The notes beneath the pieces are model-generated. The model saw nothing but the letters and a program-made list of their open reading frames with translations. It ran no database searches and was not told the DNA's origin. Below, one piece after another: positions 1-35,978 of a stretch of DNA of 64,000 bases. The stretch is from an uncultured virus (IMG/VR IMGVR_UViG_2831971958_000015) (lineage: Duplodnaviria > Heunggongvirae > Uroviricota > Caudoviricetes), in the IMG/VR virus record IMGVR_UViG_2831971958_000015; one strand, given 5' to 3'. Numbering within the stretch: the first letter of the stretch is position 1; each line of letters opens with the position of its first letter. Position numbers and translations under genes: made by a program.

Positions 1-1041
1 TCACCCGATTTTCTTAAGCTCTTCCTCGAAAAGTTCCCCGGCAGAATGATAACCATGTATACGACGGGGATAGTTATTTATCCAGTTTTCCATTTCCTCT
101 ACCTCTGCGTCCGTCATGCCGTCAAAATTTGTCCCCTTTGGTACTTTGCGCCGTACCATTTTATTAGTAACCTCATTTGTGCCTCGCTCCCAGCTGCTAT
201 ACGGGTGACAGTAATATAGCTGCGTCCGTTTCCCCTCTCCCAGTATAGAGCGTTCCAGCTCTTCACAATATGCAAACTCGCTGCCATTGTCTACGGTTAT
301 GCTTTTAAAGACTTGTTTAAACATAGCTCCCCATTTTCTTTCCAATGCGTCTAAAGCATCTACTACCGCCTCTGCTGTCTTGTCCGGCAGCTTAAATATG
401 ATCTCGTCCCGCGTCTTTCTTTCCGTCAGTACCAGCAGGGTATTTTTAGATTTTCCCCGCTGTCCTATTACGCTATCCATTTCCCAGTGTCCGAACTCTT
501 CCCGCCTGTCTACCTCTTCCGGGCGCTTTTCTATGCTTGTGCCTGCCGCCGCCCTCGCCTGCTGCCTCTTTACTTTCTTATAGTCCCTCTTCTTATTTGC
601 CTTTACTGGTAAATCCTTATTTGTAAGCTGTAGAAAGATACCTTTATCAATATAGCTGTAAAGCGTCGTTACGCAGATCGTTACGGAAAATTCCCCCTCT
701 TTTCCCTGTGCCTTAAGCTCCCCCAGAACGGCAGCCGGGCTATATCCCTCATTTACTATTTTATCCTCTATATAATTTGCTAACTTAATATCGTTGCCGA
801 TCTTAAGCACGCCGCCCTTGCTTTTCAGATTCTCCCTGTACTTATCGTCTGCAATATCCGGGCTGTATCGTTCTTCCTGCGTGAGATCGGAATTAAGCGC
901 CGTATAAACTCCCCGCTTTATTTCCCGGTATATTGTGCTGCGGTGTACATGCAGCATGTCTGCGATCTCTTTTTTACCATGCCCCGCCTTTAGTAATGCC
1001 TCTAATTTTATCCGATCTGCCTTTGTCAGATGCTTACCCAT
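1..1041 (-). CDS. IS30-family DDE transposase (probable phage integrase)
   Basis: N-terminal HTH (LHVHRSTIYREIKRG); DDE motifs GHWEMDSV, SITVDNGSEF, WERGTNE; intact 346 aa. Confidence 0.95.
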   Translation of the reverse strand: MGKHLTKADRIKLEALLKAGHGKKEIADMLHVHRSTIYREIKRGVYTALNSDLTQEERYSPDIADDKYRENLKSKGGVLKIGNDIKLANYIEDKIVNEGYSPAAVLGELKAQGKEGEFSVTICVTTLYSYIDKGIFLQLTNKDLPVKANKKRDYKKVKRQQARAAAGTSIEKRPEEVDRREEFGHWEMDSVIGQRGKSKNTLLVLTERKTRDEIIFKLPDKTAEAVVDALDALERKWGAMFKQVFKSITVDNGSEFAYCEELERSILGEGKRTQLYYCHPYSSWERGTNEVTNKMVRRKVPKGTNFDGMTDAEVEEMENWINNYPRRIHGYHSAGELFEEELKKIG

Positions 1042-1077
1042 TTCCCTTACCTCTCTTTTGTCCCATATACGACGAAA

Positions 1078-1107
1078 AGCCGCAAACTCTTTTACAAGTC
1101 TGCGGCT
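1078..1107 (-). terminator. Probable intrinsic terminator between the moron operon and the transposase
   Basis: AGCCGCA...TGCGGCT inverted repeat followed by T residues on the minus strand. Confidence 0.45.
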
Positions 1108-1120
1108 CGCTATTTTTGCC

Positions 1121-1816
1121 TCATTTACAGCATTTCTTACAAGCTGTATACTTCTTTTTTGCTTGGCTTAGTGGTATGCTCTTTGGGTTTTTCATTCCAG
1201 AACATGTAGGCTTACTATGGTACTTTTTGCTGCTACGGTCTATATATACGATTGTCTCGCCCGCTGGCTGCGCTGCGCGGCTTTTCTTCTCTTCTATGAG
1301 AACGTCAAGCTCTATATTACAGCCAAACGTTTGTACCCCACCCCCGGAAATTTCCAGTATTTCTGCGGTGTATCGGGCTTGCGGGTATTTCCGCGCTAAG
1401 TCCTTTGCCAGCTCTGCTGATAGATTCCCCAGTACCTTATTGCCCCACTTGATGCACGCGGCAGGCTCTCCATTGTATGTATATTTTTCTACCGTTATAT
1501 CCTCGTCGCCTGTCATGGTTCTTAATATGTCCTGGCGGTTCTCCCCGTCCTCGTTATCAAAAGTCACGCCTACCAATTTCGTGCGTATAGTTTCCGCAAT
1601 CCTGCTGCCAGATGCAGCGGCAGGCGTTCCCGTTTTCCCCGGCTCTTCCTGCTGCCCGGCTGCCTCTTTCTCTGGCTTGCGTGCCAGCAGAAAACATACG
1701 GCAGCAATCACTATGCAACCGACACCGCCCGTAATATTCCCGGACGGCAGCGCCACAATTCCGCTTACTGCAAATAATGCAGCCACAACATATAAAATAA
1801 TTTGTTTCTTTGCCAT
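1121..1816 (-). CDS. Membrane-anchored protein with HIRAN-like domain and C-terminal Cys/His metal-binding motif
   Basis: Two N-terminal hydrophobic helices; TKLVGVTF..RQDIL HIRAN-like segment; KKYH..C..ACKKC tail. Confidence 0.6.
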   Translation of the reverse strand: MAKKQIILYVVAALFAVSGIVALPSGNITGGVGCIVIAAVCFLLARKPEKEAAGQQEEPGKTGTPAAASGSRIAETIRTKLVGVTFDNEDGENRQDILRTMTGDEDITVEKYTYNGEPAACIKWGNKVLGNLSAELAKDLARKYPQARYTAEILEISGGGVQTFGCNIELDVLIEEKKSRAAQPAGETIVYIDRSSKKYHSKPTCSGMKNPKSIPLSQAKKKYTACKKCCK

Positions 1817-1840
1817 AAAATAAGCCCTCTCTTTCGCCTT

Positions 1841-2035
1841 TTACTTTAATTCTAATATTTCATCAGCAGAGGCGTTAAGCTCCCTGCATATTTTTATAAA
1901 CATTTCCAATGTAGGCGCGTGCGCCCCATTTTCCCAGCGGCTTATATCCTTTTGGTGGACTTGCAGGCGTTCCGCAAGTTCTTTTTGTGAAACGCCCGCC
2001 GCTTTTCTCGCTTTTCTTATATTATTTCCGATCAT
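1841..2035 (-). CDS. XRE-family HTH regulator
   Basis: IRKARKAAGVSQKELAERLQVHQKDISRWENG. Confidence 0.9.
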   Translation of the reverse strand: MIGNNIRKARKAAGVSQKELAERLQVHQKDISRWENGAHAPTLEMFIKICRELNASADEILELK

Positions 2036-2130
2036 GCGTTACCTCTTTTCTCTTTAGCTCTCATTATAAGGGCTATGCAGAGTTTCACCGTTCCTACGGC
2101 TACCAAAAAAATACCTAATTTCAAAATCAT
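2032..2130 (-). CDS. Small hydrophobic peptide, 32 aa (MILKLGIFLVAVGTVKLCIALIMRAKEKRGNA)
   Basis: Translated by hand (below the ORF-track cutoff); ATGA overlap with the XRE start. Confidence 0.6.
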   Translation of the reverse strand: MILKLGIFLVAVGTVKLCIALIMRAKEKRGNA

Positions 2131-2198
2131 GCTCTTTACTCGGCTTTGGGTTTATGATATATTTTTTATAGGCGGCGGGCTTTCGCCCGCCTATAGGT

Positions 2199-2315
2199 CT
2201 AACCTATGTACTTGTCGATAATGATAAGTATTATGCCTATGATTAAGTCTATCAGTGCATTGACCGTCAAATCTTGCCACTTGATAGGCTTTTTCTTTTG
2301 TTTCTTCTTACCCAT
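2199..2315 (-). CDS. Small Lys-rich membrane peptide, 38 aa (MGKKKQKKKPIKWQDLTVNALIDLIIGIILIIIDKYIG); candidate type I toxin
   Basis: Translated by hand; AAAGGAG RBS upstream; single TM helix. Confidence 0.65.
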   Translation of the reverse strand: MGKKKQKKKPIKWQDLTVNALIDLIIGIILIIIDKYIG

Positions 2316-2480: not shown

Positions 2481-3956
2481 TTATAATCTTGTGCAATAGT
2501 CCAGCGATACCCAGCCGTCCTTATTCTCTTCATACGCTTTCAGCAGCCCCCAGCCTGCGGCGCTGCCCTCTCCGGCTTTTACCTCTACAATGGTAAATAC
2601 TCCCACACCTGTATACTTCCCCGTCTTTTCAAAATCCGTGCCTGCGCCCGTCCTTATTCTAAGATCGGTTATATCTACCTTTACTTTAAAGGGAACCTGT
2701 GCCGCCTCTGTCTTTCCCTGCTCTGTGTTCCCGCCTGCCCCGGCTCCTGCGTACCTGTCGTAATACTCCTGCCCGTATGCTGCCCGGCGCTGCTTTACTG
2801 CCTCGCTCTGATCTGCGGGCTTTTCGTACCCGGTCAGCACTGCATCAGAGGCAGCCCGTACCGACGTTGCAGCCATAAGCGCGGAAATAACGCCCTTGTA
2901 GCCCTGTAATTCCTGCCACAAAAAGGCAAGCTGCATATTTAAGCCGCCGATCGACGCGCCCGCCGCTTTCGCGTAATCATACAGCGCCTGCTTGCGGCTA
3001 TAATACGTCCACTGCGCAAGCCCGTAGCCCGCGCTGTCCCTCACAAAATTTGTGTAGCTGCCGCTGTCTACAGCTGCCGTATATTCTGCGTCCGTCATTT
3101 CCAGCCGCGTATTAAAGGAATTTTGCAGATTGTCTGCTTTAAGCCCGCTTTCTGCAAAAAGGTTTCCCATAAGCCCGGCTGCTGCATAGGCATTTAATCC
3201 TTTGCCTGTCAGAAAAGCCCAGATCACGCTTTCCGCGCCGCCTGCTGCCGTCTGCTGCTCATTGCCTGCAAAAGCGCTGTATACCGCCTTTCCGTTCCAG
3301 TCATACACATTATAGCCAGCAATGCAGGCTTTCTTTGCATTTTCCAGACTTTCAAAAGCTCCCAGCTGCCCGGCTGCATCTTCCCAGCGCTTACGCACCC
3401 TGTAAAGTTTCTTTTCCGCGCTCCCGGCAGATGCAGCGCCGCCGCTTATCAGCCTTTTAAACTCGTCCCATGTATGCACCGTTGTATTATATACATACGG
3501 GTTAGGGCAGATTTTCCCGGTAACGTCGTAATGCCTTATGACATGATCGGCAGGCACGCCGTACTTATCCATTAAGTACCTTGTCAGCTCTGCCGCCGCC
3601 TCTACCGTCGCGTCCTCAAAATACCAGTCCTTATCTGTCGCGCCCTGGCTGGCGGTGTTCCTCTTCTTTACGCACAGCTCAATACCTATACTGTTTGCGT
3701 TCCGGCACTCCCCATGCTTATAACTCTTTGCGCCGCAGTGCCACGCTATGTTAGCATCTTCCACGCACTGCCAGATTTCCCCGTTGTGATCTACAAAATA
3801 ATGTGCGGACGCATTTCTATTGCCGCCTGCAAAATATTTGCAGTTTGCCTGCGCCCCACTCAAACCGCCCACGTAATGAATCACAATGTACTTGATACGG
3901 GAAACGCTGCCCGGATTGAAATTGTACCCGCTTATCAGCCTGTTAATGTTCCTCAT
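2481..3956 (-). CDS. Endolysin (Amidase_2 + phage tail lysozyme-like + SH3-like cell-wall-binding domain)
   Basis: YIVIHY, ASAHYFVD, IAWHCG, RHYDVTGKICP; GLMGNLFAESG/GYGLAQWT lysozyme-like segment; GWVSLDY C-terminus. Confidence 0.9.
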   Translation of the reverse strand: MRNINRLISGYNFNPGSVSRIKYIVIHYVGGLSGAQANCKYFAGGNRNASAHYFVDHNGEIWQCVEDANIAWHCGAKSYKHGECRNANSIGIELCVKKRNTASQGATDKDWYFEDATVEAAAELTRYLMDKYGVPADHVIRHYDVTGKICPNPYVYNTTVHTWDEFKRLISGGAASAGSAEKKLYRVRKRWEDAAGQLGAFESLENAKKACIAGYNVYDWNGKAVYSAFAGNEQQTAAGGAESVIWAFLTGKGLNAYAAAGLMGNLFAESGLKADNLQNSFNTRLEMTDAEYTAAVDSGSYTNFVRDSAGYGLAQWTYYSRKQALYDYAKAAGASIGGLNMQLAFLWQELQGYKGVISALMAATSVRAASDAVLTGYEKPADQSEAVKQRRAAYGQEYYDRYAGAGAGGNTEQGKTEAAQVPFKVKVDITDLRIRTGAGTDFEKTGKYTGVGVFTIVEVKAGEGSAAGWGLLKAYEENKDGWVSLDYCTRL

Positions 3957-4043: not shown

Positions 4044-4532
4044 TTATCTTTCCTGCTGCTTATGCCCCTCTACGCTGCCCGTGGTGCTGTTTCCGTCCAG
4101 TTCGTCCGTGTCCGGCAGCTCGTCCGTATACTTGGAAAGAAAGCCCCGCACACTCGCCCATACTCTTTTTACAGGCAGCCCACATAATGCCATATTCTTA
4201 AAAATGCTGGTGATCTCATAGGCTATGTAAAGCAGGCTGAAAAACTCCGCTACGCCTACTGTCTTAAGCCCCAGATAGCCCCGCGCTGTTTCCGGGATAA
4301 ACCCGATCAGATTGATCTTGATAAGCATGTCGATTGCCAGCATGAATACAAGGGAAATCAGCATTGCCACTTTCCGTATTGCGCCGTCAATCCCTGCGCA
4401 GCTGTTGAACTTCTTTTCTTTTACTGCCCGCAGTACCCCGAAAACAGTATCAAATACAATCGCCAGTATTACCAGCTCGATCACCTTATTGTGTGCCGCT
4501 GCGTCGATAAACTCCATTATTTTCATTTCCAT
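4044..4532 (-). CDS. Holin (toxin secretion/phage lysis holin type)
   Basis: DTVFGVLRA..K.NS..GIDG.IRK, three TM segments, E..SI.KN; adjacent to endolysin. Confidence 0.85.
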   Translation of the reverse strand: MEMKIMEFIDAAAHNKVIELVILAIVFDTVFGVLRAVKEKKFNSCAGIDGAIRKVAMLISLVFMLAIDMLIKINLIGFIPETARGYLGLKTVGVAEFFSLLYIAYEITSIFKNMALCGLPVKRVWASVRGFLSKYTDELPDTDELDGNSTTGSVEGHKQQER

Positions 4533-4708
4533 AAATCCTGCCTTTCTGCTTTCTGCAAATTTAATGCCCGCTCTTTCAGTTCCGCACCGTCGTACCCTGC
4601 TACGCTCTCCCAGTTTTCCAGAGTGGCGGTTAATTCAGCAATAAGCCTGCTCTGCTTTTCAATAGTTTCCTGCTGCTCATGCAGCACTTGTAGCAAAATT
4701 TTACTCAT
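4523..4708 (-). CDS. Small coiled-coil hypothetical protein, overlapping the RT stop
   Basis: 61 aa ORF coupled to RT and holin. Confidence 0.65.
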   Translation of the reverse strand: MSKILLQVLHEQQETIEKQSRLIAELTATLENWESVAGYDGAELKERALNLQKAERQDLWK

Positions 4709-5799
4709 GTACTCACTCCTGCGCCTGCTGGCTTTGCCGCCTGCGCCCGTTCCTGCGCATCAGCCGCCATTTTTATTATTTTCTTTCGTAAATGCAGGCT
4801 GTCGGCGTGTCCTGCGTGTCCCGTCCAGCTTGCAATACTCTTTTGTAGATTTTCCCTTGTGATCTCGCCCCTTTCATACTTCTTGATTGTCCGCTTGATA
4901 CGTTTAATGCTGTCTGGTCTTACTTTCCTGTGTGTCGCCCTGTGCTTATAGCCCACAAAATCTATGCCATTCTTTGCGCATAAAATGACGGTCTTTGGGT
5001 TCAGCTCTAAAATAAGCTCTTCTCTTAAGAATCTTTCAATATCAGCCAGCCAGCGCCGCAGCTCTTCCTTGTCCGGGCTTAATATAATAAAGTCGTCCAT
5101 GTACCTTTCGTATTTTTCCGCGCCCAGTGTGTGCTTGATGTACTTATCCAGCTTATCCAGATAAATGTTGGCGAATAGTTGGCTTGTAAGATTTCCTACG
5201 GGTATGCCCGTACCGTCCGGCATCTGCCCGTTATGCTCTATGATCTTGTCGATCAGTGCCAGCGCCTTTGCGTCCTTTATTACTTTCCGTATCTCTGCCT
5301 TAAGCACATCATGGTTAATGCTCTGGAAATAGTGGTGTATGTCCGCTTTGATCGCATACATCGGCGTGTCCGGGTGGAATCGCTGCCACTCATAAAGCCA
5401 ACTTTTCAGCGTGTCAGACGCGGCGTGCATACCCTTATTTTTCCTGCAGGCGTAAGAATGGAAAATAAAACGCTTTTCAAAAATCGGTTCCAGCACGTTG
5501 TTAATGGCGTGCTGTACTACCCTGTCATAAAACGGCAGCGCCATAATCTGCCGTTCTTTCGGTTCATATACCTTAAAATATCGGTACTCGCTCGGCTCAT
5601 AGGAAAGCCCCAGAATTTCATTTCGTACCCGCTCTAATTTTTCCTCTTTGTCTTTGGTAAATATTAAAACGTCCCTGCGGTATCGCTTGCACTTCCGGGC
5701 TTTATTGTATGCTTTCTGCACACTCCCGTAGTCAGCTATAGCCTCTACAAGCGTAAGCCGCCTGCCATTTTTATCTGTGATATGCCCTATTCGTTTCAT
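4705..5799 (-). CDS. DGR reverse transcriptase (DGR1)
   Basis: DRVVQHA, GIPVGNLTSQLFAN (SQ signature), RYMDD, IDFVGY. Start set at MKRIGH after an AGGAG RBS; the ORF track extends to 5838. Confidence 0.95.
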   Translation of the reverse strand: MKRIGHITDKNGRRLTLVEAIADYGSVQKAYNKARKCKRYRRDVLIFTKDKEEKLERVRNEILGLSYEPSEYRYFKVYEPKERQIMALPFYDRVVQHAINNVLEPIFEKRFIFHSYACRKNKGMHAASDTLKSWLYEWQRFHPDTPMYAIKADIHHYFQSINHDVLKAEIRKVIKDAKALALIDKIIEHNGQMPDGTGIPVGNLTSQLFANIYLDKLDKYIKHTLGAEKYERYMDDFIILSPDKEELRRWLADIERFLREELILELNPKTVILCAKNGIDFVGYKHRATHRKVRPDSIKRIKRTIKKYERGEITRENLQKSIASWTGHAGHADSLHLRKKIIKMAADAQERAQAAKPAGAGVST

Positions 5800-5964
5800 G
5801 TAAAAAGCTCCTGCCTTTCGCCTTAAGCTACTAACCAACAGCCCTGCTTTTTCTCTTTGCCTTACGGCGGGACAGCCCCTCTGATTCTGGAATATTAAGC
5901 ACTCTTAATATTCAAACCCTTGCTAGTGTTCCTTAGATACGCTAAGCCTGTAATGCTTTCACCA

Positions 5965-6090
5965 AATCACACGCCCCGCGCACGCCGATGTTCGTGTTCA
6001 CGTTCCACGGGTAATTGTTGCAATTCACGGCACGCGCGCCCGCGTGAACGCCATTGTTCCAGTTACCGCCCGCGATCAGCGCCGCCAGAG
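5965..6090 (-). ncRNA. DGR1 template repeat (TR)
   Basis: 126-bp gapless match to 6529..6654; 11 mismatches, all at TR adenines (coding strand); AAC/AAT-rich. Confidence 0.95.
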
Positions 6091-6122
6091 GGCTGTAATA
6101 AGCGGCTGCCCCATATAAAAAG

Positions 6123-6479
6123 CTACTTTGCAGCCTTTACCTCTTCTATGATCTCGCCCAGCATAACGCCCAGTTCTGTAAGTTTCCTGCCGCACTCCCC
6201 GTAATGCTGCTTATTCATTGCGCTGTATTTCAGATCATTTGCCAGCCGCAGCAGCTCCTTACTCTGCTGCAATGCCACATCTGCCGCGTACAAGTGGCTT
6301 TTCGTCGCCGTTTTCTGCCACTTTATAACGTCTTGCAGCATTTCCAGCACGGCGTTTCTGGTTGCCGTCTGCAAGCTGAATTTTTCATATTTGGGGTACT
6401 TACTTAGCAGGGGATATATGTATAGCAGAAAATCATATATTTTCTGGTGTAGTATGTCGCCTTTATCTCTTATTGACAT
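6123..6479 (-). CDS. avd: DGR accessory variability determinant (Avd)
   Basis: 118 aa; YPLLSKYPKYEKFSL..LRLANDLKY..ELGVMLG four-helix-bundle pattern; lies between target and TR. Confidence 0.9.
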   Translation of the reverse strand: MSIRDKGDILHQKIYDFLLYIYPLLSKYPKYEKFSLQTATRNAVLEMLQDVIKWQKTATKSHLYAADVALQQSKELLRLANDLKYSAMNKQHYGECGRKLTELGVMLGEIIEEVKAAK

Positions 6480-6500
6480 TTTTATCCGTCCCCCTGTAGC

Positions 6501-6519
6501 GGCTGGGCTTTCGCCCGCC
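6501..6519 (-). promoter_or_regulatory. DGR1 post-VR hairpin (GNRA loop)
   Basis: GGCGGGC-GAAA-GCCCAGCC immediately after the target stop codon. Confidence 0.7.
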
Positions 6520-6520
6520 T

Positions 6521-8093: not shown

Positions 8094-8108
8094 AATCTGC
8101 CCCTTTCC

Positions 8109-9245: not shown

Positions 9246-9250
9246 GCTTT

Positions 9251-16771: not shown

Positions 16772-16773
16772 GC

Positions 16774-27192: not shown

Positions 27193-27197
27193 TTCCC

Positions 27198-27968: not shown

Positions 27969-28019
27969 TCTCTGCCTCTCTTTCTTGCGCCGCCTCTGGG
28001 CGCAGCTGCTTAATATGCT

Positions 28020-28310: not shown

Positions 28311-28705
28311 ATCTGCCCCGCCTCTCCTAAATCCTTAATTCGCAGCAGATACTTTTCTATCAGCTCTGCTGCCGCCTGCCAGCCATAACATACCGCTGTA
28401 AAATATCCCTGCTGCCGCAGGAACCTTAACCAGCCTTTCTGCTTTGCCGTCGTGGTATTCTTCCCAGCCTTAAGCTCTATGTACAGCCCGTGGTACTCTC
28501 CCCGCGCTACTGGTAAATGAATATCCGGCACGCCTGCTTTTACTCCCTGCCTCTTTAGCGCCGTTGCTGTCGCCGCATCACGCTTGCCGCCGTTTGGTAC
28601 ATGGTACATATATTCCAATTCCGGCATACGTCCCAGCTGATACCCCGCCCAGCTAAATAGCGCCTCTTGGTGTCCGCTCTCGTCGTCCAGCCTAAAGTTT
28701 CTCAT
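28295..28705 (-). CDS. VRR-NUC domain nuclease
   Basis: HVPNGG..GVKAGVPD..LYIELK. Confidence 0.9.
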   Translation of the reverse strand: MRNFRLDDESGHQEALFSWAGYQLGRMPELEYMYHVPNGGKRDAATATALKRQGVKAGVPDIHLPVARGEYHGLYIELKAGKNTTTAKQKGWLRFLRQQGYFTAVCYGWQAAAELIEKYLLRIKDLGEAGQIWGKE

Positions 28706-29186
28706 GCCCTCGCCTCTCTTTCCTATATTCCCTGTACAATGCTTTCCAGCGCTCCTTGCTTAACCGCCTTTTGTAGCATAAATACCGTTCTGCTTTCCTG
28801 CTGTACTCTGCCAGCTCTTTTGCCTCCTCTTCTCCTTTACCGCCTGCTGCCACAATCCCGTAAAGCGACGGGCTTATTATTCCCAGTTGCCTTTTGATCT
28901 CATTTTCGCAGATACAGCGCGGCGTTTTCGGTCTGCGTCTCTCCATGTATTCCGGGTAAAATATCTGCATTTTCTTTCTCTCTTTCCTGCCTACTGTGTC
29001 CCAGCTGCATATACTGAAATACTCACACCATAGGCAGCAGTGCTTACAGTTCTTACCATGCCGGAATAACCAGTGTATAAGCCTCTGCCTCATTTCCTGC
29101 GCCCCTTTCTGTCGTCTATGCCGTTCCAGTATTCCCAGTTCCTCGTATCCTCGCTGGCATGTGCTATAGCCACTGCTGCCAGACAC
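28692..29186 (-). CDS. Hypothetical phage protein(s); start uncertain
   Basis: Co-oriented ORF. Confidence 0.4.
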   Translation of the reverse strand: MSGSSGYSTCQRGYEELGILERHRRQKGAQEMRQRLIHWLFRHGKNCKHCCLWCEYFSICSWDTVGRKERKKMQIFYPEYMERRRPKTPRCICENEIKRQLGIISPSLYGIVAAGGKGEEEAKELAEYSRKAERYLCYKRRLSKERWKALYREYRKERRGHEKL

Positions 29187-29255
29187 ATTACAGCGCCCGC
29201 CAGTACCAAAAGCACCACGCCCACGCCTATTACCACAATCCGTACATACTGCATC

Positions 29256-30023
29256 TTATCCCCCCTCTCCCTCTAATTTGACTAATGTATATCTGAAATA
29301 CCCGTAGCCGTAATATTCCGGGCTATGTACTCCCTTGCTTATGCTGTCCTTGTCAACGTAATATCCCTTTATCGCCCTCGGCTCTGCTTTGAACCATTGC
29401 CGATCTGAAATTATCCGTATTTCCGGCACTGGTCTTACAAGGTTCTTGCTGCTATTCCAGCGTTTGCCCTGTAGCGCCCCGTCCTCTTCTTTCCTGTGCT
29501 TGTCCGTGTACTTAATCAGATAAGCTGCCAGATCGGCATAGTTGCCGCTGTCGTCCAGAGGAAAGACTTTCACCCGGTTATGCCCCTCATACGCCTTATA
29601 CCAGCACTGCTGCAATATCTTTGTATCTATCTGGTTTATAACTAAGTGGTGGTGCCTGGCTCCCTTGTCCCCGATCTCCATAACATGAATATACTTAAAC
29701 TCTATCCCAGCCTTTTTGTACTCTTTCCGGCACTCCCTTAGAAATATATCCATGTCCTGCCGCATCTGCTCTTTTGTCCGTGGCGGCTCCCCTTTCCTGC
29801 GTATGTAGTCCAGCACTAAATGATAGTCCCCATATCCAAAATTAGCATTTATCAGAATCCTTAACTTTCTTTCTGCCTGCCTTGTATTGATCTTTTGCTG
29901 CTGCTCTGTGGTGGGCTTTACCTTATCCCCCCTCTTTATCCCCTGCTTTTTATATCTGCTTGTAAAATACCTCTCTACCTCTATGGTCTTACCCGCCCTT
30001 GTTATCCTCTCAACGTATGGCAT
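29256..30023 (-). CDS. HUH-family rolling-circle replication initiator
   Basis: Motif I HLVLDY, motif II HHHLVI, motif III AAYLIK. Confidence 0.8.
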   Translation of the reverse strand: MPYVERITRAGKTIEVERYFTSRYKKQGIKRGDKVKPTTEQQQKINTRQAERKLRILINANFGYGDYHLVLDYIRRKGEPPRTKEQMRQDMDIFLRECRKEYKKAGIEFKYIHVMEIGDKGARHHHLVINQIDTKILQQCWYKAYEGHNRVKVFPLDDSGNYADLAAYLIKYTDKHRKEEDGALQGKRWNSSKNLVRPVPEIRIISDRQWFKAEPRAIKGYYVDKDSISKGVHSPEYYGYGYFRYTLVKLEGEGG

Positions 30024-30060
30024 ATATTTTTACTCCTTTTAGGTCTATCTGGTCGGAAAG

Positions 30061-30200
30061 CTAATAGTTTTATCAAGTGGTAAAACGGGCTTGCGCCCGC
30101 GTATTACTTGACATTTCGCCATACAGTGATATACTGGATATAGGTTGTAAAAGCTGTATAGCTTAGCCCCTATGGTATTCCCGTACCGTAGGGGCTATTA
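30061..30200. promoter_or_regulatory. Candidate double-strand origin plus antisense RNA unit
   Basis: Minus-strand CGGGC-GCAA-GCCCG hairpin then CTTGATA (30077-30071); plus-strand TTGACA/TG-TATACT promoter at 30108..30135; hairpin at 30164..30197. Confidence 0.6.
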
Positions 30201-30223
30201 AATTATTCTCATTTAATGCGAAT

Positions 30224-30430
30224 TTACAGGGCTGCTGCTTTCCGCTGCCTCTTAAGGTTTCTGATCTGCTCCAAAAGCCCTTTTTCTTTCTGTGCAAGCT
30301 CTTTGTGCTGTTTCAGCTCCTTGTAGTCGTCCCATAGGCTACGGAAAATAGCAATGCTTTTCCCGTTTCTCCCGTGGCGGCTCAACCTGTTTGCCTCGTT
30401 CCTTAATACTGCTCTCCTTAATTTTCTCAT
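30224..30430 (-). CDS. Hypothetical basic protein
   Basis: Co-oriented ORF. Confidence 0.55.
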   Translation of the reverse strand: MRKLRRAVLRNEANRLSRHGRNGKSIAIFRSLWDDYKELKQHKELAQKEKGLLEQIRNLKRQRKAAAL

Positions 30431-30936
30431 TCTCTAATCGCTCCTTTGCTATAATGTGTTTCTGCATATTCATAAGCCCGTTTATAAGGCTCTGCGCAGC
30501 AAAATAATGTACAGGTATGGAAATGCCTACCTTTGCAGAAATCGCAGGCGTGCAGCTTTGCGTAGCACTCTATAACTTCCTTTTTCCGCTTACGGTCATA
30601 TTCCAGCTTGTATGCCAGCTTGTCCGCGTTTACTACCTCAATCCCCAGACAGTCTGCCGTCTGTATTTCCCGGCTCATTCCCTCACTAATTCCATACTTA
30701 ACGCCTGCTATTACAAATTCGCAGCATTTAAGCAACGCTAAGCCTGCCGCCATACCCGCCGCCCGCTCCTGTAGCTTGTCCTCATTTAAGCATTGCGTCA
30801 TGTATAAATGCGGCGTGATCGGCGCTAAGCCCGCCTCTATTGCCTGCTTTGTAAGCGCCTGCGCATACTCTATGTGCCTGTCAAGCTCTGCGCCGTCCTT
30901 TGCCCTGTACGGGCTGCATATGTATACTGTCCTCAT
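30427..30936 (-). CDS. DUF4406 / nucleoside deoxyribosyltransferase-like protein
   Basis: VYICSPY..PITPHLY..ISEGM..EI. Confidence 0.7.
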   Translation of the reverse strand: MRTVYICSPYRAKDGAELDRHIEYAQALTKQAIEAGLAPITPHLYMTQCLNEDKLQERAAGMAAGLALLKCCEFVIAGVKYGISEGMSREIQTADCLGIEVVNADKLAYKLEYDRKRKKEVIECYAKLHACDFCKGRHFHTCTLFCCAEPYKRAYEYAETHYSKGAIRE

Positions 30937-31274
30937 TCCTGCCCGCCTTTCTCAAATCGTTCTATAAATTCCTGCTCTGTTTGCCATGAAAGCGGGTTCT
31001 CTACTTCCCGCTCTTCCCAACACTCGCCTACTGCCTCGTCCTCGTCGAAAACAAAACGTATATAAGCGTGCGGGTTTTCCTCGTCCTCGTCTGGTATCAG
31101 CGCACTTAAGCTGTAAAATGCTGGCACACCCTTAAAGCTGTATGTCTGTGGGTTTTCCTCTGTCGCCAGCCTCATAATGCCGTAGGCGTTGCTTTCCAGA
31201 ATAGCGCCCCGTTCTACTACTTGCTGCTTTGTCAGCGTGCAGGCGGGATTGCCGCAAAAATCACACATTGCCAT
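30933..31274 (-). CDS. Hypothetical phage protein
   Basis: Co-oriented ORF. Confidence 0.55.
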   Translation of the reverse strand: MAMCDFCGNPACTLTKQQVVERGAILESNAYGIMRLATEENPQTYSFKGVPAFYSLSALIPDEDEENPHAYIRFVFDEDEAVGECWEEREVENPLSWQTEQEFIERFEKGGQE

Positions 31275-31998
31275 CCTCTCCTATTTTTTTAATGAAACTT
31301 ACTGAAATCTCGTATGCCGTCTTCTGCTTGAAAAAAAAAAAAACAACTATCATATATTCCCGGCTCTGGCATCTTCCCAGCAGCTTAACCTTATCGCCTG
31401 GCAGCCAGCCTGCTACCTCGTCCGCGTTCTCCTGCCAGCAAATACAGGGAATATAGCAGCTTGTCCCTGTAAGCACATTCTCTACCTTTACGAAAATATC
31501 AGAAATGCGTTTCCCTCTCGGCGTTTCCCGGTATGTAGGCTTATACGCCAGCTCTCCCATAAGCGCTATGTCATTTTGCAGCATTGCTTTAGGGCTTAAG
31601 CCTATGTACTCTGCCAGAATGAATACCAGCACTTTACCGCTCTTAAAATCTTTAAGCGCCTGCTGCCGCCCGGATATTAAAAGCCTGCTGCCCGGCAGGA
31701 AATAATTTTCAAGCCGCAGCCCGTCCCCGGTCTTTCCCCGGTCTACTGCCGCCTCTGTAAAGGCTACTGCTACCTCGTCAATAATGCCGCTTGGTCTTTT
31801 CGTCTCGATCTTTGCCAGATAACCATTGAACCGCAGCCCGCATATGTCCGTTACCTCTTCCAGCTCCGTAAGCTCTCCTGCCAGCCCCGCTGCGTTGCTT
31901 ATCCTGCCTCTTTCCGTCAGATCGTCCAGAATCCCTGCATTAAGGTCTGCCAGAAAGTCCGGCTTTTTATCCTGCCTTTTGTTCCGCTTTTTGCTCAT
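31261..31998 (-). CDS. ssb: ssDNA-binding protein (tandem OB folds); 3' end corrupted by adapter
   Basis: R.SG..D; P.YRETP.G.RI.D..YIPCICW..G..QSREY..AYE.SV. Confidence 0.8.
   Translation of the reverse strand: MSKKRNKRQDKKPDFLADLNAGILDDLTERGRISNAAGLAGELTELEEVTDICGLRFNGYLAKIETKRPSGIIDEVAVAFTEAAVDRGKTGDGLRLENYFLPGSRLLISGRQQALKDFKSGKVLVFILAEYIGLSPKAMLQNDIALMGELAYKPTYRETPRGKRISDIFVKVENVLTGTSCYIPCICWQENADEVAGWLPGDKVKLLGRCQSREYMIVVFFFFKQKTAYEISVSFIKKIGEDGNV
31307..31343 (+). other. Illumina P7 adapter plus poly-A (assembly artefact)
   Basis: ATCTCGTATGCCGTCTTCTGCTTG (reverse complement of CAAGCAGAAGACGGCATACGAGAT) followed by 13 A. Confidence 0.95.
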
Positions 31999-32257
31999 AC
32001 TTTGCGTGATCTCCTTTCCCGCTATAACTTATCAATATTTCTATTGCCCGCTTATAGCACGCTATTTCGTCCTCTTCCTTTACTTTGCAGATACAGCGCC
32101 CGCGCCTCTCTCCCACATACTCCCAGATTTCAATAAAGTTATTGCCGTATATGTCAAAGTGCATATGACACCTTAAACCGTGGCTTTTCTGTATCGGTCT
32201 GTATATCTGGTAAAATTTATTTATAAGTGCGCTGCGTTCCCCGTCGTTTTCTCCCAT
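31967..32257 (-). CDS. Hypothetical phage protein
   Basis: Co-oriented ORF. Confidence 0.6.
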   Translation of the reverse strand: MGENDGERSALINKFYQIYRPIQKSHGLRCHMHFDIYGNNFIEIWEYVGERRGRCICKVKEEDEIACYKRAIEILISYSGKGDHAKYEQKAEQKAG

Positions 32258-32266
32258 ATGCGCCCC

Positions 32267-32584
32267 TCACTTTTCCGGCATCTGATATAAGCGCGGTATC
32301 ACTGCTGCCATAGGCGGCGTAGCCTCGCTGCCTATCAGTAAGCCTGTGTTGCCCGGCGCATATAAATACCGCCCGCATACGCTCTGTATCTCGTCTATGA
32401 TCTCTATACAGCGCTCTTTGCTTTCGTATATCCCTAGCGTGTACATTGATGTTGCGTCCATATTCAGCATTATTCTGTTTTCTTTCATGCCCGCGTTTGT
32501 AAATTCTTTATACCTTATCCCGCATGATTCTTTGATCGTATAAAGCCCCTCTTTGTCCTGGCTGCGTATGTATACTTCACTCAT
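32267..32584 (-). CDS. Hypothetical phage protein
   Basis: IRSQDK..LG.YESKER..E..DEI pattern. Confidence 0.65.
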   Translation of the reverse strand: MSEVYIRSQDKEGLYTIKESCGIRYKEFTNAGMKENRIMLNMDATSMYTLGIYESKERCIEIIDEIQSVCGRYLYAPGNTGLLIGSEATPPMAAVIPRLYQMPEK

Positions 32585-32599
32585 TGTCTGCCTCGCTTT

Positions 32600-33244
32600 C
32601 TATCTCTCTCCAAATATTGCTATTGCCTCTGCTAAAATTTCTTGCGTAGGCAGATAGCAAATTTCTGTATTCTGGTAATCTGTATGGTGTGTTAAAAAAT
32701 ACTCTTCGCACGCCTGCTGCTCTGTCAGCCCCTCTAACATCAGCGCCCAAATTATTTCCCTTTCCTCTTCCACAAGCGCCCTGCCGTCGTTAATGATCTC
32801 CATGTTTAAAGGCTGCTCTGCTTTCGCGTTTATTTCCTGCAAATACCAGCCCGCCTGCTTATACTCTTCTAAGCGCTCTGGCGTTAATATGCTGTACTCG
32901 TCTGGGAAAATCTTTACTTCATGCGGCGTATAGATTTTTGCGCACTGCCTGCCGTACTCGTCCACTCCTACCAGTGTTTTTATCTCCGTACCGCTCCAAT
33001 TTCCCAGCTTATCTTTAGTGGCAGCTTTTCCCTCACGCACAAAGGGTACAGCCCAGTAAATCCCGTAAAGCTGCGGCGCTGCATACTCCGCTACTGGCAG
33101 GCTCTTAATAACCATTACCCAGTTGCCCGACGTAATAAGTGTGCGCTCGTCCCGTCTTTCCCTGCTACCGTCGCCCCATTCATCTACATAGTTTCTTTTA
33201 AATCCGTACTCGTCTACTGCTGCCTCTGTCTGCTTTCTTCCCAC
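32600..33244 (-). CDS. Hypothetical phage protein
   Basis: GTG start with GAAAGAGAGG RBS. Confidence 0.65.
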   Translation of the reverse strand: MGRKQTEAAVDEYGFKRNYVDEWGDGSRERRDERTLITSGNWVMVIKSLPVAEYAAPQLYGIYWAVPFVREGKAATKDKLGNWSGTEIKTLVGVDEYGRQCAKIYTPHEVKIFPDEYSILTPERLEEYKQAGWYLQEINAKAEQPLNMEIINDGRALVEEEREIIWALMLEGLTEQQACEEYFLTHHTDYQNTEICYLPTQEILAEAIAIFGER

Positions 33245-33269
33245 TTCTCTACCTCTCTTTCGTTTCCCG

Positions 33270-33566
33270 CTAAAAACTGCTATCTATAACCATTTCCTTA
33301 GTGAATACCAGATACAGCCCCAGCGGTACTGTAATGATCGCTATTGTTGCGTCGCCGCCTGTCAGCATAACCGCCAGAATAGTAAACAATAAAAGGAATA
33401 TGCCCGTTAAGCGCTGCTTAAGGAAATACTGGCGGCGCTGCTGTCGCCTGCGCTCCCTCTGCCTGTCCCGGTGTAACCGTTCCATATAATCAGATACAGC
33501 CGCCTTGCTGGTTGTATCTGTGTAAATAATCACTGCATACCTCATGCCCTGCCCTACTTCCTGCAA
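33270..33566 (-). CDS. Hypothetical membrane protein
   Basis: Two C-terminal TM helices (GDAT motif). Confidence 0.6.
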   Translation of the reverse strand: MQEVGQGMRYAVIIYTDTTSKAAVSDYMERLHRDRQRERRRQQRRQYFLKQRLTGIFLLLFTILAVMLTGGDATIAIITVPLGLYLVFTKEMVIDSSF

Positions 33567-34477
33567 TCATAGTCTGCAAAATCTTTGCAGCTGTTAAAGA
33601 TAATTCTGTTATTTACCCAACGCTGTAAGCGCTTAAGCCTATGCCCGGCTGGTATATTCTGCTTATCATAAAGCATTACATACGGTGCATACCCCAGATC
33701 ACGCAGAGTATATACCCGCTCTAAATCCTGCTCAAAAGTGGTATTGAAATTACATAGAACGTATACGCCCAGCTTTTTTCTTTCCCAGCCCGTGATTTCC
33801 CTAAATTCTTTAAATTTCGGTATGATCGCCTCTTTGTCCTCGTACCTGTCCCACGCAAAATGTATGCGTTTTATCTTCATGCGCTTTATGTACCCCGCTT
33901 TTTCCTGCGTCATAATACGAATATCGCAGCCCTGCGAAAAGTCCACCCATGCGCCGCTGTCTATCAGCTGATCGCTTAAGCCTCTCCACTCTTTACAGGC
34001 AAATAGGTTAGCATCTAAAAGCACTATGTTTTTCTGTCCGCGCCAGAACTCCGAAAGATCAGCTACTTTCTTTGCAGCCCGCCCCTCTTTCTTCCCCACT
34101 ATGCAAAAGTCGCACCCTCTGGGACAGCCCCTTGTAAGGAATCCGTAGGCTGTTTCTTTTACCTCTGGTATCTTCTCGAAGTAAATAGAATAGTCCGGGT
34201 ATATGTGTTCTATCTCTTCCGGCAGCTCTGCGCCGCCGTCCGGGTAACTGTACCCTGTGCCGCCTCTTATGATCTCCTGCGCATTTACCGGGTGCTGGTA
34301 ATCTGGCGTAAAGGTAAATACTTTGCTCATGTATACCCGGTCTGGCGGGTTAAGCCATGCTGTAAGCGGGTTATGCCAGCCTACGCTATCGCCCCGGCTT
34401 TTGTGATATGCCGATATTTTCATAAGTGGCAAATTAGGGAACCCGTGACCGTCTACGTCTATCAGCTCTACCCTCAT
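33554..34477 (-). CDS. Radical SAM / Fe-S oxidoreductase
   Basis: FPNLPLMKIS; TRGCPRGCDFC (CxxxCxxC). Confidence 0.85.
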   Translation of the reverse strand: MRVELIDVDGHGFPNLPLMKISAYHKSRGDSVGWHNPLTAWLNPPDRVYMSKVFTFTPDYQHPVNAQEIIRGGTGYSYPDGGAELPEEIEHIYPDYSIYFEKIPEVKETAYGFLTRGCPRGCDFCIVGKKEGRAAKKVADLSEFWRGQKNIVLLDANLFACKEWRGLSDQLIDSGAWVDFSQGCDIRIMTQEKAGYIKRMKIKRIHFAWDRYEDKEAIIPKFKEFREITGWERKKLGVYVLCNFNTTFEQDLERVYTLRDLGYAPYVMLYDKQNIPAGHRLKRLQRWVNNRIIFNSCKDFADYDCRK

Positions 34478-34791
34478 TTCCTGCCGTCCTCTTTTCTATA
34501 GCGGCAGCTGTCGGTATGCCTGCTGCCGCTGCCGTGATATATTCCTTGCCTTGCCAAATCCCTTAAACTCTCCCTCCGGGCGGCGCTCTCTGTCTCTTCA
34601 CTGCTGCCGCTCTCCTGTTCTGGCGTAGTTTTACCGTATGGGCGCTTTTTCGCCTTAAAAAAGCTGCTTAAAAACTTGTTGACCGTCTACATACTCTCTA
34701 GCTGGTATGACCGCTGCTATTTTTCTACGGTATACAGATAACAGCTTTTCGCCTGCTGCATCTGCCGCAGGCTCGCCATGCCTGCTACAAA

Positions 34792-34866
34792 TACGCCCTG
34801 CTGGAATCGAACCAGCGCCCCCGCTGTATGCCCGGCTGCGGTATTCTCCCACTGAATTAAAGGCGC
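34792..34866 (-). tRNA. tRNA-like element with non-canonical, enlarged anticodon arm (pseudo-tRNA or mimic)
   Basis: Acceptor GCGCCTT/AGGGCGT; D-stem ATTC/GAAT; T-arm GCTGG-TTCGATT-CCAGC; 21-nt anticodon arm; no encoded CCA. Confidence 0.6.
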
Positions 34867-34890
34867 TTAATGGCGGCAGCGCCGCCTATG

Positions 34891-35274
34891 TCAAAATAGA
34901 AATCCCTTATCTATCAGAAACTTTATCCAGTCGCAGCCCGTCACGTCGTCCCTTTCTATAAATTTATAAAATTCCTCTTTAGTCGTTACGTTATCCTCTG
35001 CTAAAAACTTCTTTGCTATTGCTACTGCATTTGTTTGAAATACATGCTCTGCATAGAAAGCCTTTTCTATTGTTCCGTAATCATTGCTGCTTTTCGGTGT
35101 ACGCATTTCCACTACTACCATAGGCTTATTATTCTTTTTATTTCTGGCTCTCCTTATAACTACTGCCTCACTGAATAACCAGCCATTCCAGCCGTACCGT
35201 TGCGGTGCAAATTGAGTACGTGGCACTTGTACCAGTTCCCCTGCTTTCAATTTCTTAAAATCTATTTTTTTCAC
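34891..35274 (-). CDS. Hypothetical early protein
   Basis: GTG start with strong RBS. Confidence 0.65.
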   Translation of the reverse strand: MKKIDFKKLKAGELVQVPRTQFAPQRYGWNGWLFSEAVVIRRARNKKNNKPMVVVEMRTPKSSNDYGTIEKAFYAEHVFQTNAVAIAKKFLAEDNVTTKEEFYKFIERDDVTGCDWIKFLIDKGFLF

Positions 35275-35295
35275 GTTTCTACCTCTCTTTCGTTC

Positions 35296-35592
35296 TTAAA
35301 TACAGTCTCTATATTCCGGCTTTCCAGCCCAGTATTTCAGATAGTCAGTAAATGTACTGTTGCCGCTTTCCAGCTCTGTAAATGCTGCCTCTGCCTCTTC
35401 ATTACTGGGAAACTCAAAACTAAAACGGTAACTTTCCCCTGCTTTCGGCGCAAACTGCCCTTTATGCGTTGCCTTGCTTTTCGGGTAAAATGCAAGCGTA
35501 CTGCCATACGGCATAAAGCTATAGTTTTCGCTCCATTCCTCTATTTGAATATCTACACCGCCTGCGCTCTTTCCAGTTTTTAATACTTTCAT
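35296..35592 (-). CDS. Hypothetical early protein
   Basis: ATG start with strong RBS. Confidence 0.65.
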   Translation of the reverse strand: MKVLKTGKSAGGVDIQIEEWSENYSFMPYGSTLAFYPKSKATHKGQFAPKAGESYRFSFEFPSNEEAEAAFTELESGNSTFTDYLKYWAGKPEYRDCI

Positions 35593-35622
35593 GGTCTTAC
35601 CTCTCTTTCGTCCCCTCTTTGG

Positions 35623-35823
35623 TTAAATTGCCCGCTGCGCCAGTTCTGCGCTGTACTGCTGCCGCTTTCCGTTCTCTGCCCCGCCTCTTTGCAGCTCCCG
35701 GTATAAAGTGCCTCTGTGTACGCCTACCGCATCAGCTATAGTCTCTGCATTACTGCCAGCCTTACACATAGCCTCTATTCTCTTCCTGTCCTCATAACTT
35801 AGCCTTTTGTACTTCCTTGCCAT
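35623..35823 (-). CDS. Stand-alone IS30-type HTH protein
   Basis: YKRLSYEDRKRIE..IADAVGVHRGTLYRELQRG..YSAELA, collinear with the transposase N-terminus (IADMLHVHRSTIYREIKRG..YSPDIA). Confidence 0.85.
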   Translation of the reverse strand: MARKYKRLSYEDRKRIEAMCKAGSNAETIADAVGVHRGTLYRELQRGGAENGKRQQYSAELAQRAI

Positions 35824-35952
35824 TGTCCCCGCGCTCCTTTCCTGTTATTGGATAAAAAAATAGTGCGATAGAGTTTTTTAAGCTCTACCGCACTATGCTT
35901 TTACTATTATCTACCGTAAAAAAATAAATGCGGCAGAGGCTTTAATACCTCT

Positions 35953-35978
35953 TGTCGCATTTAATTTTAAAACTTATC
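35953..35978 (-). repeat. IS30-like 26-bp terminal inverted repeat (prophage 1 end)
   Basis: GATAAGTTTTAAAATTAAATGCGACA; length and inner end resemble E. coli IS30 IRs (..CGCAACA); abuts the IS630 truncation. Confidence 0.65.

Follow-up and report, generated by a model that had tools for sequence, protein, structure and literature searches.

An integrase-less temperate siphophage that inserts through an IS30-type transposase beside promoter-like sequence

Introduction

How does a tailed phage that carries no integrase insert into the chromosome of its host? The question is raised by a 36-kb siphophage at the start of the window, the 64,000-nt stretch of uncultured-virus DNA analysed here (IMG/VR IMGVR_UViG_2831971958_000015), whose last gene encodes an IS30-family transposase. 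It had been predicted from the sequence of the window that the whole phage moves by IS30 transposition, that its integration is site-flexible, and that its target in this case was another IS.

The phage class itself has been published, as the original prediction recognised, and the architecture is not new. FP_Lagaffe (Cornuault et al. 2018, PMC5883640; NC_047911) was described as using an IS30-family transposase as its integrase, with direct repeats at the flanks of the prophage. The IScream phages (Wirbel, Hickey et al., Nature 2025, PMC12823448) are described as tailed prophages without a canonical integrase; one of their ends carries a full-length IS30 transposase that points outward, and the opposite end a truncated IS30-derived ORF that points inward. 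They live in gut Clostridia and have been seen in several host taxa, and the present phage resembles them in each of these respects. The main-text passages on the IScream phages mention neither inverted repeats (IRs), target sites, promoters, integration or insertion sites, intergenic DNA nor tRNA. What is reported here on the tips, on the junction with its 2-bp spacer and split promoter, on the 15-bp duplication and on the promoter register of the targets therefore goes beyond the published passages. For IS30 of E. coli, work of the Olasz/Kiss laboratory (PMC9333248) describes copy-out transposition, IRs abutted over 2 bp, the junction promoter Pjunc and a 2-bp target duplication.

Results and discussion

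The element and its boundaries

The genome assembly contains 248 further bases that precede window position 1. Reading outward, these comprise 42 bp of the element, including an inverted copy of the IR, and then the remainder of an IS630 gene. The element begins 42 bp to the left of position 1 and extends to position 35978, a length of about 36.0 kb (some 36,020 bp by the sequence of the window). The IRs at its two tips are 27 bp long and alike at 19 of 27 bases, the inner 13 matching perfectly; the left copy falls outside the window, with its tip at G000:C46:31358. In the 6.0-Mb genome the 15-nt core of the IR has exactly two copies, one at each end of the element. Comparison with uninterrupted IS630 copies in contigs C25 and C73 revealed a perfect 15-bp target duplication, CATCTGCAGCGTATT, which brackets the whole element. 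At the right end the IR cuts the IS630 ORF in mid-frame, and the continuation of this ORF matches the IS630 copy at the start of C25. Both ends are therefore as the original prediction had them, with a broken IS630 gene on the right and, on extension to the left, an inverted IR, the rest of the IS630 gene and a duplication. In two metagenome runs (X1 and X6) an identical right arm (0 differences) stops exactly at 35978 and is followed by different flanking DNA; the runs whose contigs carry the phage are labelled mouse gut metagenome.

With IRs at both tips and the 15-bp duplication outside them, the prophage was shown to be one transposition unit. The element is a temperate siphophage prophage in a gut bacterium; no integrase was found among its scanned ORFs, and its insertion is ascribed to the IS30-type transposase. 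Its features are given in Table 1.

Table 1. Features of the element and of its insertion site, in window coordinates unless a contig is named
Feature	Position	Strand	Remarks
Left copy of 15-bp duplication	G000:C46:31359-31373		CATCTGCAGCGTATT; outside window
IS30-family DDE transposase, full-length	1-1041	-	Last gene, outward-pointing; stop 42 bp from left tip
231-aa ORF	1121-1816	-	Upstream of transposase
XRE-type HTH regulator, 64 aa	1841-2035	-	Upstream of transposase; HTH_3 4.9e-17
Endolysin	2481-3956	-	Amidase_2 and tail-lysozyme domains
Holin	4044-4532	-	
Diversity-generating retroelement (DGR)	4705-7663	-	RT 4705-5838, TR 5965-6090, bAvd 6123-6479
Mtd-type DGR target gene	6521-7663	-	VR 6529-6654
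Siphovirus structural and packaging module	7656-23660	-	Includes tail and baseplate genes, protease
Tape measure	11293-14790	-	
Major tail	15451-16014	-	
Capsid	18051-19292	-	
Portal	19874-21208	-	
TerL	21178-22833	-	
HNH	23316-23660	-	
Early and replication genes	23822-31274	-	Includes a 113-aa ORF
Sigma-like	23822-24427	-	
ParB-like/DUF3850	25909-27192	-	
ParA	27198-27968	-	
VRR-NUC	28295-28705	-	
Replication initiator	29256-30023	-	
DUF7768	30427-30936	-	
Adapter-derived assembly artefact	31300-31309 and 31324-31349	.	Adapter tail and poly-A, not phage
Further early genes	31350-35592	-	Includes small ORFs without assigned function
SSB-domain protein	ends 31998, in block from 31350	-	True stop falls within corrupted patch
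PHROG 9298 'radical SAM domain' protein	33554-34477	-	
HTH_38 protein, 66 aa	35623-35823	-	Inward-pointing; HTH_38 7.8e-13; phrog_11420, phrog_4646
Two strong stem-loops, each then a U run	35925-35963 and 35860-35896	-	Between right IR and HTH_38 start
Right terminal IR	35952-35978	-	Tip at 35978; contains junction-promoter -10 TAAAAT (35964-35969)
Right copy of 15-bp duplication	35979-35993	.	CATCTGCAGCGTATT
IS630 transposase codons 1-35	35979-36085	-	Reads MARPRKYV...TIRCR; cut after codon 35
Interrupted IS630 element, 5' part	35979-36175	-	Target DNA, not phage; NF033545; IS end 36175

The circle junction and its promoter

Facing IR cores were found in five viral contigs, which carry the transposase side and the HTH_38 side of the window at 70–84% identity. 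In all five the right tip is joined through 2 bp to the left tip, and the 2-bp spacers vary (TT, TT, TC, AA and AC). The virion genome of Lagaffe likewise has abutted IRs, directly after the transposase stop, with the pair TTGACT-16-TAATAT. Among five complete prophages, four (the present one, G130, G193 and G367) have a perfect 15-bp duplication, each of a different sequence; the fifth, G391, has none, though both of its ends lie on one contig. Abutted tips with 2 variable bp characterise the circle junction of IS30, and their occurrence in relatives supports the formation of such a circle. Together with the duplications and the exact ends of the right arms, they support the predicted movement of the whole phage as one unit by IS30 chemistry; the present copy would presumably excise by this route as well.

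When abutted, the tips assemble a sigma-70-type promoter, TTGACA-17 bp-TAAAAT, which agrees with the consensus at 11 of 12 positions and is directed into the HTH_38 and early genes. The transposase-side tip supplies its −35 and the other tip its −10, and integration separates the two halves. The two stem-loops are very stable (−45 kcal/mol, z −5.06, with none of 200 shuffles as stable), and the stem of the first includes the inner IR. No terminator was called at 35860–35963 by a simple scan. Stem-loops with U runs directly behind the junction promoter could stop its transcripts, which makes a role of this promoter in early expression uncertain.

Target sites

The insertion sites of related phages were compared, as the original prediction had proposed, giving many sites in one register upstream of −35 hexamers; all flanks used come from established lysogens. 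The best −35/−10 pair lay 26–28 bp from the transposase-side end in 58 of 72 independent flanks; 34 of these 72 belong to two other IR types whose tips were placed by our own patterns and not by duplications or junctions. For the IR type with tips proven by duplications and junctions, the count was 29 of 38, and for the exact IR of the present element 16 of 21 flanks had the pair at 26–27 bp. One exact base register and one orientation accounted for 49 of the 72 flanks, while the best promoter fell outside 26–28 bp in 14. In the target logo of 76 unique flanks, positions 27–32 read T66 T68 G51 A40 C42 A47, and positions 50–55 resemble a −10. When scored at the fixed register, 54 of 75 flanks reached at least 9/12, compared with 15 of 1430 control registers. 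The transposase-side tip thus lies 26 bp upstream of the host −35, after an A-tract and ahead of the −10, and the phage genes are co-directional with the host promoter. Forward tRNA genes start 67–110 nt from the tip in 13 of 65 flanks, which speaks for genuine promoters at such sites. A TTGACA-like hexamer was absent at 2 of 11 sites (L032 and L107) with a 98–100% identical transposase.

At the present site, TTGACC occupies positions 27–32 from the transposase-side tip and no −10 was found, indicating that the rule concerns the motif rather than promoter function, or that it is loose. The IS630 gene was hit because this promoter look-alike stands at the right distance, and not because the target is an IS. 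Thus the insertion lies inside an IS630 gene as predicted, but an IS as such is not the target. In the same way, the predicted flexibility holds in that many sites are used, but these share a constraint, a −35-like TTGACA at a distance of 26 bp from the tip on the transposase side; integration is multi-site and not random.

Such a pattern might also reflect selection after random insertion, if only harmless insertions just upstream of promoters persisted. Sites upstream of promoters in intergenic DNA are neutral, and established lysogens are the sole source of the flanks. Selection alone, however, should give a broad spread over intergenic DNA, not a single base register with a single orientation, and the present insertion lies inside a gene and still has TTGACC at the same register. 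We therefore consider this explanation unlikely; the survival of harmless insertions could partly shape the fixed distance, leaving the 1-bp register unexplained.

Direct recognition of the target seems to us the likelier basis of the rule, and we lean towards describing the Lagaffe/IScream phages as promoter-homing transposable phages, which would insert 26 bp upstream of a sigma-A −35 with its A-tract, in one orientation and with a 15-bp stagger. As the junction promoter would exist only in the circle, transposition would act as a switch between the circular and prophage states. Homing of this kind would leave the host promoter intact and spare genes, and would be a bacterial counterpart of the homing of retrotransposons to positions upstream of Pol III genes. 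No description of promoter homing was found in the literature passages searched.

The transposase and the mode of transposition

The transposase matches NCBIfam NF033563 with 243.5 bits (cut-off 80) over profile positions 1–267 of 267, and PHROG 4646 'transposase' over its full length (E = 6.8e-144), in agreement with the intact transposase noted in the original prediction as the last gene; it points outward. Its identity is 58.7% with the Lagaffe transposase (over 98% of the query) and 61.2% with that of phage Saumur. The ORFs between the two ends (1–35978) that were scanned with Pfam, NCBIfam and PHROG yielded no integrase, no resolvase and no further recombinase family, again as predicted. 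A tyrosine-recombinase remnant at 36260–36643 lies outside the element.

An IS30-derived ORF is present at each end, and the IScream paper draws an analogy with a composite transposon (PMC12823448), in which two IS30 copies, each potentially still mobile alone, would surround the phage. The right-end ORF, however, corresponds to a diverged transposase N-terminus (38% identity to residues 3–65, E = 8e-13) without the catalytic domain, and matches what the IScream layout shows as a 'truncated IS30'. With this ORF so reduced, and with no inner IRs in the element, there is today one IR pair and one enzyme. A composite transposon is thus unlikely as the present mechanism, and a composite origin may be part of the element's history.

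An ordinary free-standing IS30 bordering a prophage whose integration depends on another, unrecognised enzyme would fit with the IS elements that prophages often receive, and with the several element ORFs that have no family. It is very unlikely, since the second IR expected of such an IS just upstream of the transposase (1041) was searched for and not found, the transposase gene is single-copy in the genome, the partner IR is 36 kb away, the 15-bp duplication brackets the whole unit, and the same layout recurs in other genomes, with abutted ends in viral contigs.

We conclude, with a probability of about 0.85, that this temperate siphophage belongs to the Lagaffe/IScream type, uses a domesticated IS30 transposase as its integrase and has a genome bounded by one IR pair. 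After infection, the cos-packaged DNA of such a phage would circularise, and the transposase would cut the abutted tips and join them to the target, whose strands would be offset by 15 bp, beside a TTGACA read directly by the transpososome. When the prophage is induced, strand transfer of the IS30 kind from one end to the other would restore the circle, which would take up 2 flanking bp and re-form the junction promoter. A point against this scheme is the stagger that it would require, 15 bp as compared with 2 bp for IS30.

The likeness to IS30 (PMC9333248) extends to a DDE transposase with an N-terminal HTH, IRs of about 26 bp, a marked target preference and, in the contigs of relatives, a circle with IRs abutted over 2 bp and a junction promoter. 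IS30 itself is 1.2 kb long and prefers palindromic hot spots or its own IRs (PMC9333248), whereas the present element has a 35-kb phage cargo, a 15-bp duplication and an asymmetric, promoter-like target. An IS30-family IS makes a 2–3 bp duplication and is 1–1.7 kb long with transposition genes only; the present element falls outside this definition on both counts. IS1630 of Mycoplasma fermentans, a member of the IS30 family, makes unusually long and variable duplications (about 19–26 bp); it targets inverted repeats and is not known to target promoters or to carry phage cargo. Phage Mu employs MuA/MuB, makes near-random 5-bp duplications, transposes replicatively and is packaged by headful with host DNA at its ends. 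The present phage shares with Mu and Mu-like phages a tail and a DDE transposase in place of an integrase, but has an IS30-type enzyme, a 15-bp duplication, its own replication initiator, ParA/ParB, and HNH and TerL packaging genes. Lagaffe, a 48-kb myovirus of Faecalibacterium and Blautia, has a reverse transcriptase (Table 1 of PMC5883640), as does the present phage, but differs from this 36-kb siphovirus in its structural genes. For Clostridium phage Saumur (ON453901; host Enterocloster clostridioformis), a 47-kb record, the comparison covered the transposase, whose gene is likewise the terminal one of the sequence.

Gene content and assembly

Profile scans found a complete tailed-phage gene set in the element (capsid, protease, portal, TerL, tape measure, tail, holin and endolysin). 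The region 1121–2035 (minus strand) gave a match to phrog_37629. In the diversity-generating retroelement, all 11 of the 11 TR/VR differences fall at TR adenines.

Positions 31300–31349 hold an assembly patch, within which 31310–31323 (14 nt) are genuine phage bases that are coincidentally adapter-like. The genome assembly divides the phage between two contigs at this position: C46 stops at 31316, and C23 differs at 21 places within 31324–31349. The patch stretch matches unrelated phage records at 95.5–97.6%. An independent IMG/VR contig is identical on either side, runs across the patch and supplies the natural bases, so the phage is contiguous there. That the 36-kb unit is a chimera of two prophages joined in assembly via adapter sequence, as the adapter-derived bases and the assembly break at the same point might suggest, can practically be dismissed in view of this contig, the colinearity of the flanking genes in G193 and the fit of both outer flanks to a single IS630 copy with a 15-bp overlap. 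Loose contig ends were also seen at 36175/36176, which is the end of the IS630.

Structure of the element and its insertion site

A complete siphovirus lies between the IS30-family transposase and the right tip of the element at position 35978 (see the table). The ORFs scanned in this interval gave no match to an integrase, a resolvase or any other recombinase family. The original prediction was that the whole phage moves as one unit by IS30 chemistry and that its target here was an IS630 gene. Left of window position 1, where contig C46 of the window's own assembly (G000) carries 248 extra bases, 42 bp of element with an inverted copy of the IR are followed by the continuation of the IS630 ORF. 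Both the IR and the rest of the target gene are therefore where they were predicted to be, and comparison with uninterrupted IS630 copies additionally gave a 15 bp duplication at the insertion, CATCTGCAGCGTATT. The uninterrupted reference was the IS630 copy in contig C25, the C73 copy being truncated. An ordinary free-standing IS30, the alternative to the whole-unit reading, would have a second IR upstream of position 1041; there was no IR in that region, which favours the whole unit. The reading of the phage as a single unit moved by IS30 chemistry was essentially right, and the finding on this element is real.

Features of the element and of the adjoining DNA (window positions)
Feature	Position	Strand	Remark
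IS30-family transposase, full length	1-1041	-	single-copy in genome
Siphovirus gene set			lysis genes, DGR, tail, capsid, portal, TerL, HNH, ParA/ParB, replication initiator, SSB-domain protein
HTH_38 ORF, 66 aa	35623-35823		inward-pointing; 38% identity to transposase residues 1-65
IS630 transposase codons 1-35	beyond right tip 35978	-	target DNA
IS630 piece adjoining element	35979-36175		IS end at 36175; target DNA
Second prophage, endolysin	39618-41429
Second DGR, RT	42675-43832
Second DGR, TR	43976-44093
Second DGR, VR	44800-44917		at 3' end of gene 44787-45689
Second prophage, tape measure	51041-54610
Second prophage, Mu-F-like head protein fused to EndoU nuclease domain	62368-63906

Within 25909-30023 the phage encodes ParA, a ParB-like protein with a fused DUF3850 domain and a replication initiator of the rolling-circle type, a gene set consistent with a plasmid-like circular stage in addition to the integrated state. 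In the C25 copy, IS630 is divided into one ORF of 165 aa and another of 210 aa, and could be a frameshifted or a broken gene. IS630 is highly repeated in this genome, its ends coinciding with many G000 contig ends (15 matches in one search, 11 in another).

Ends and duplications in related elements

Contigs from the metagenome runs X1 and X6 had no differences from the window over 34000-35978 and left it at 35978 into other DNA. In 401 genomes of the family, the 15 nt IR core was found at 20 places in 13 genomes, compared with 5 for the reversed control; the tip sequences identify 13 of these places, in 7 genomes, as ends of such elements. Both ends lay on one contig, 35-39 kb apart, in four genomes, giving five complete units with the window's element. 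A perfect 15 bp duplication flanked four of the five, with a different sequence in each.

The unit without a 15 bp duplication is a 38.8 kb relative with both tips on one contig (G391:C16:80066-118895, loci L016 and L025). A rearrangement involving two insertions, or a deletion next to the element, could account for its lack of a duplication. One left-type and one right-type end in genome G097 were considered as a pair and left unpaired, being on different contigs with flanks that do not match.

The element and most relatives lie in one register upstream of promoter-like sequence

A transposase search of species-representative genomes gave 178 relatives, from which the best 80 loci, mostly from Lachnospiraceae, were kept. 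With three tip patterns, the end of the element could be placed in 77 of these 80 (L077, L078 and L083, which fitted none of the patterns, were left out); at L071 the contig stops at the tip and there is no flank. Loci L009, L013, L016 and L023 were removed as duplicates of L042, L049, L046 and L070, respectively. Counting the window's own end as well, there were 76 unique flanks with a length of 75 nt or more; flanks below the minimum length were excluded from the counts.

Among these 76 flanks, from the best 80 of 178 relatives, positions 27-32 from the tip read T (66), T (68), G (51), A (40), C (42), A (47). They are preceded by an A-tract at positions 17-22 and followed by a −10 hexamer at positions 50-55. 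In a search for the best −35/−10 pair over starts 1 to 85, 49 of the 72 flanks had the pair at position 27 and 58 had it within 26-28. The weakness of these register counts is that the tips of two of the three IR types were assigned by analogy; for the third type, in which duplications and junctions prove the tips, the register was 26-28 in 29 of 38 flanks, and with the exact IR of the window's element the best pair was at 26-27 in 16 of 21. Scored at the fixed register, 54 of 75 flanks reached at least 9/12, compared with 15 of 1430 for control registers placed farther from the tip in these flanks.

Forward tRNA genes start 67-110 nt from the tip in 13 of 65 flanks, indicating that many of the targets are real, strong promoters. 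The orientation of the phage is constant, with its genes read in the direction of the host promoter. The distance from the tip to the −35 hexamer equals the 15 bp duplication plus 11 bp, so that the promoter and its upstream A-tract are left intact by the insertion.

At ten loci the transposase was 98-100% identical to that of the window, which with the window's own site makes 11 different sites for near-identical enzymes. The hexamer was in register at nine of the 11 and absent at L032 and L107. The window's own site, inside the IS630 gene, has TTGACC at positions 27-32 and no −10; it only looks like a promoter, which argues that a DNA motif is recognised, not promoter activity. Every host has sigma-A promoters, so a conserved att site would not be needed, and a motif rule would help to explain the presence of nearly identical members of these abundant gut phages in different genera. 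With this rule, prophage boundaries in the class can also be called to the base. On the sequence comparisons made here, this apparent homing to promoters, with the switch that it implies, is the most interesting point.

Circle junction and junction promoter

Facing IR cores were found in five IMG/VR contigs, with a spacing of 28 nt in all. Each reads from a right tip through 2 bp into a left tip; the flanking DNA on one side is homologous to the HTH_38 side of the window's element and on the other to its transposase side. The 2 bp were TT, TT, TC, AA and AC, varying even among junction contigs with nearly identical tips. For the strain itself, Logan contigs of four runs were compared with window 34000-36400; in the isolate-like run X7 a contig ended at 35978 and no piece led from there into the left tip, but as such contigs drop rare forms, this has no bearing either way.

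Joining the tips of the window's phage would create the sequence TTGACA-17-TAAAAT, which matches the consensus at 11 of 12 positions in a promoter scan. The transposase-side tip supplies the −35, and the −10 is at window 35964-35969; the integrated right end retains the −10 alone, with no promoter called there. Directly behind this −10, folding gave two strong hairpins, each with a U run (−45 kcal/mol, z −5.06), though a simple terminator scan of the right end called nothing. We read these hairpins as predicted terminators. In the circle, the long transcription unit that ends with the transposase would be closed by them; in the prophage they may protect the early genes against transcription entering from the host. 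Their position behind the junction promoter makes the output of that promoter uncertain.

At 35923-35965, 30 bp in from the right tip, the IR core recurs in inverted form with 2 mismatches, and this copy forms the stem of the first hairpin with the core. It may serve the transposase as a second site or may be just the stem of a terminator.

Relation to known IS30 systems

For phage Lagaffe, an IS30 transposase was described in 2018 as serving a large prophage as its integrase, and the flanking direct repeats puzzled the authors (PMC5883640). The window's transposase is 58.7% identical to that of Lagaffe and 61.2% to that of phage Saumur. Lagaffe has the abutted IR arrangement directly past its transposase stop, as in the junction contigs of our phage's relatives, and its junction carries the promoter-like pair TTGACT-16-TAATAT, compared with TTGACA-17-TAAAAT here. 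The name 'IScream phages' was introduced in 2025 for phages with an outward full transposase and an inward truncated one, and for such a phage of Blautia hansenii circular forms and particles were shown (PMC12823448). The window's element has all features of this layout and belongs to this already published class, an assignment made by layout. In its available text, a 2026 preprint places a megaplasmid prophage in the IScream class, without tip or target detail, and another preprint describes 15 bp direct repeats flanking an IS30-bearing element, taken there as site-specific recombination.

The main text of the IScream paper, supplements aside, does not contain the terms 'inverted repeat', 'target site', 'promoter', 'integration site', 'insertion site', 'intergenic' or 'tRNA' (PMC12823448). 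The class was published on gene layout alone, and the exact tips, the 2 bp IR-IR junction and the 15 bp duplication are now laid out. With these mechanism-defining DNA features in hand, 'IS30 chemistry' becomes directly testable. As far as the consulted text of PMC9333248 goes, IS30 itself forms a circular intermediate by copy-out, with IRs abutted over 2 bp and a junction promoter, Pjunc, and duplicates 2 bp of its target. The phage keeps the 2 bp IR-IR junction and the junction promoter, but departs from canonical IS30 in its 15 bp duplication, its promoter-like target and its 35 kb cargo, indicating an IS30-like working and not an ordinary IS.

An adapter-derived patch in the window

Window 1-31316 corresponds to G000 contig C46 in reverse complement, and 31314-64000 to the end of contig C23. 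The assembly is thus split into two contigs exactly at a patch, and it reads differently from the window at 31324-31349. The segment 31307-31349 matches unrelated phage records (E. coli, Bacillus, Enterococcus, Pseudomonas) at 95.5-97.6%; we take it to be an Illumina adapter tail followed by poly-A. An independent IMG/VR contig, retrieved with a 40 nt word from the C46 side, is continuous across the patch and identical to the window on both sides. By comparison with this contig, the artefact bases are 31300-31309 and 31324-31349; the 14 nt between them (31310-31323) are natural phage sequence common to the adapter by coincidence. The genes flanking the patch are colinear in genome G193 too. 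The independent contig and this colinearity indicate that the phage is contiguous and that the errors are limited to about 36 bases. Two Butyrivibrio phages, Arawn and Idris, were also considered as evidence of contiguity; they have only replication genes in common with this phage and do not settle the matter. As regards quality control, this adapter-derived patch was read through by the gene caller, and the ORF at 31261-31998, which runs through it, has a false C-terminus.

Neighbouring DNA

A second tailed prophage (window 37000-64000) directly adjoins the IS630 copy. The 3' remnant of a tyrosine recombinase lies at 36260-36643, its homology starting about 85 bp beyond the IS630 end; because of this gap, the idea that IS630 had split the recombinase gene is unsupported. 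The second DGR (42675-45689) has all 18 of its 18 variable sites at TR adenines. Twelve of the 18 differ between the window and G000, the adapter patch being the only other difference over 32 kb; evidently, the two versions of this genome have come to differ through diversification in this DGR.
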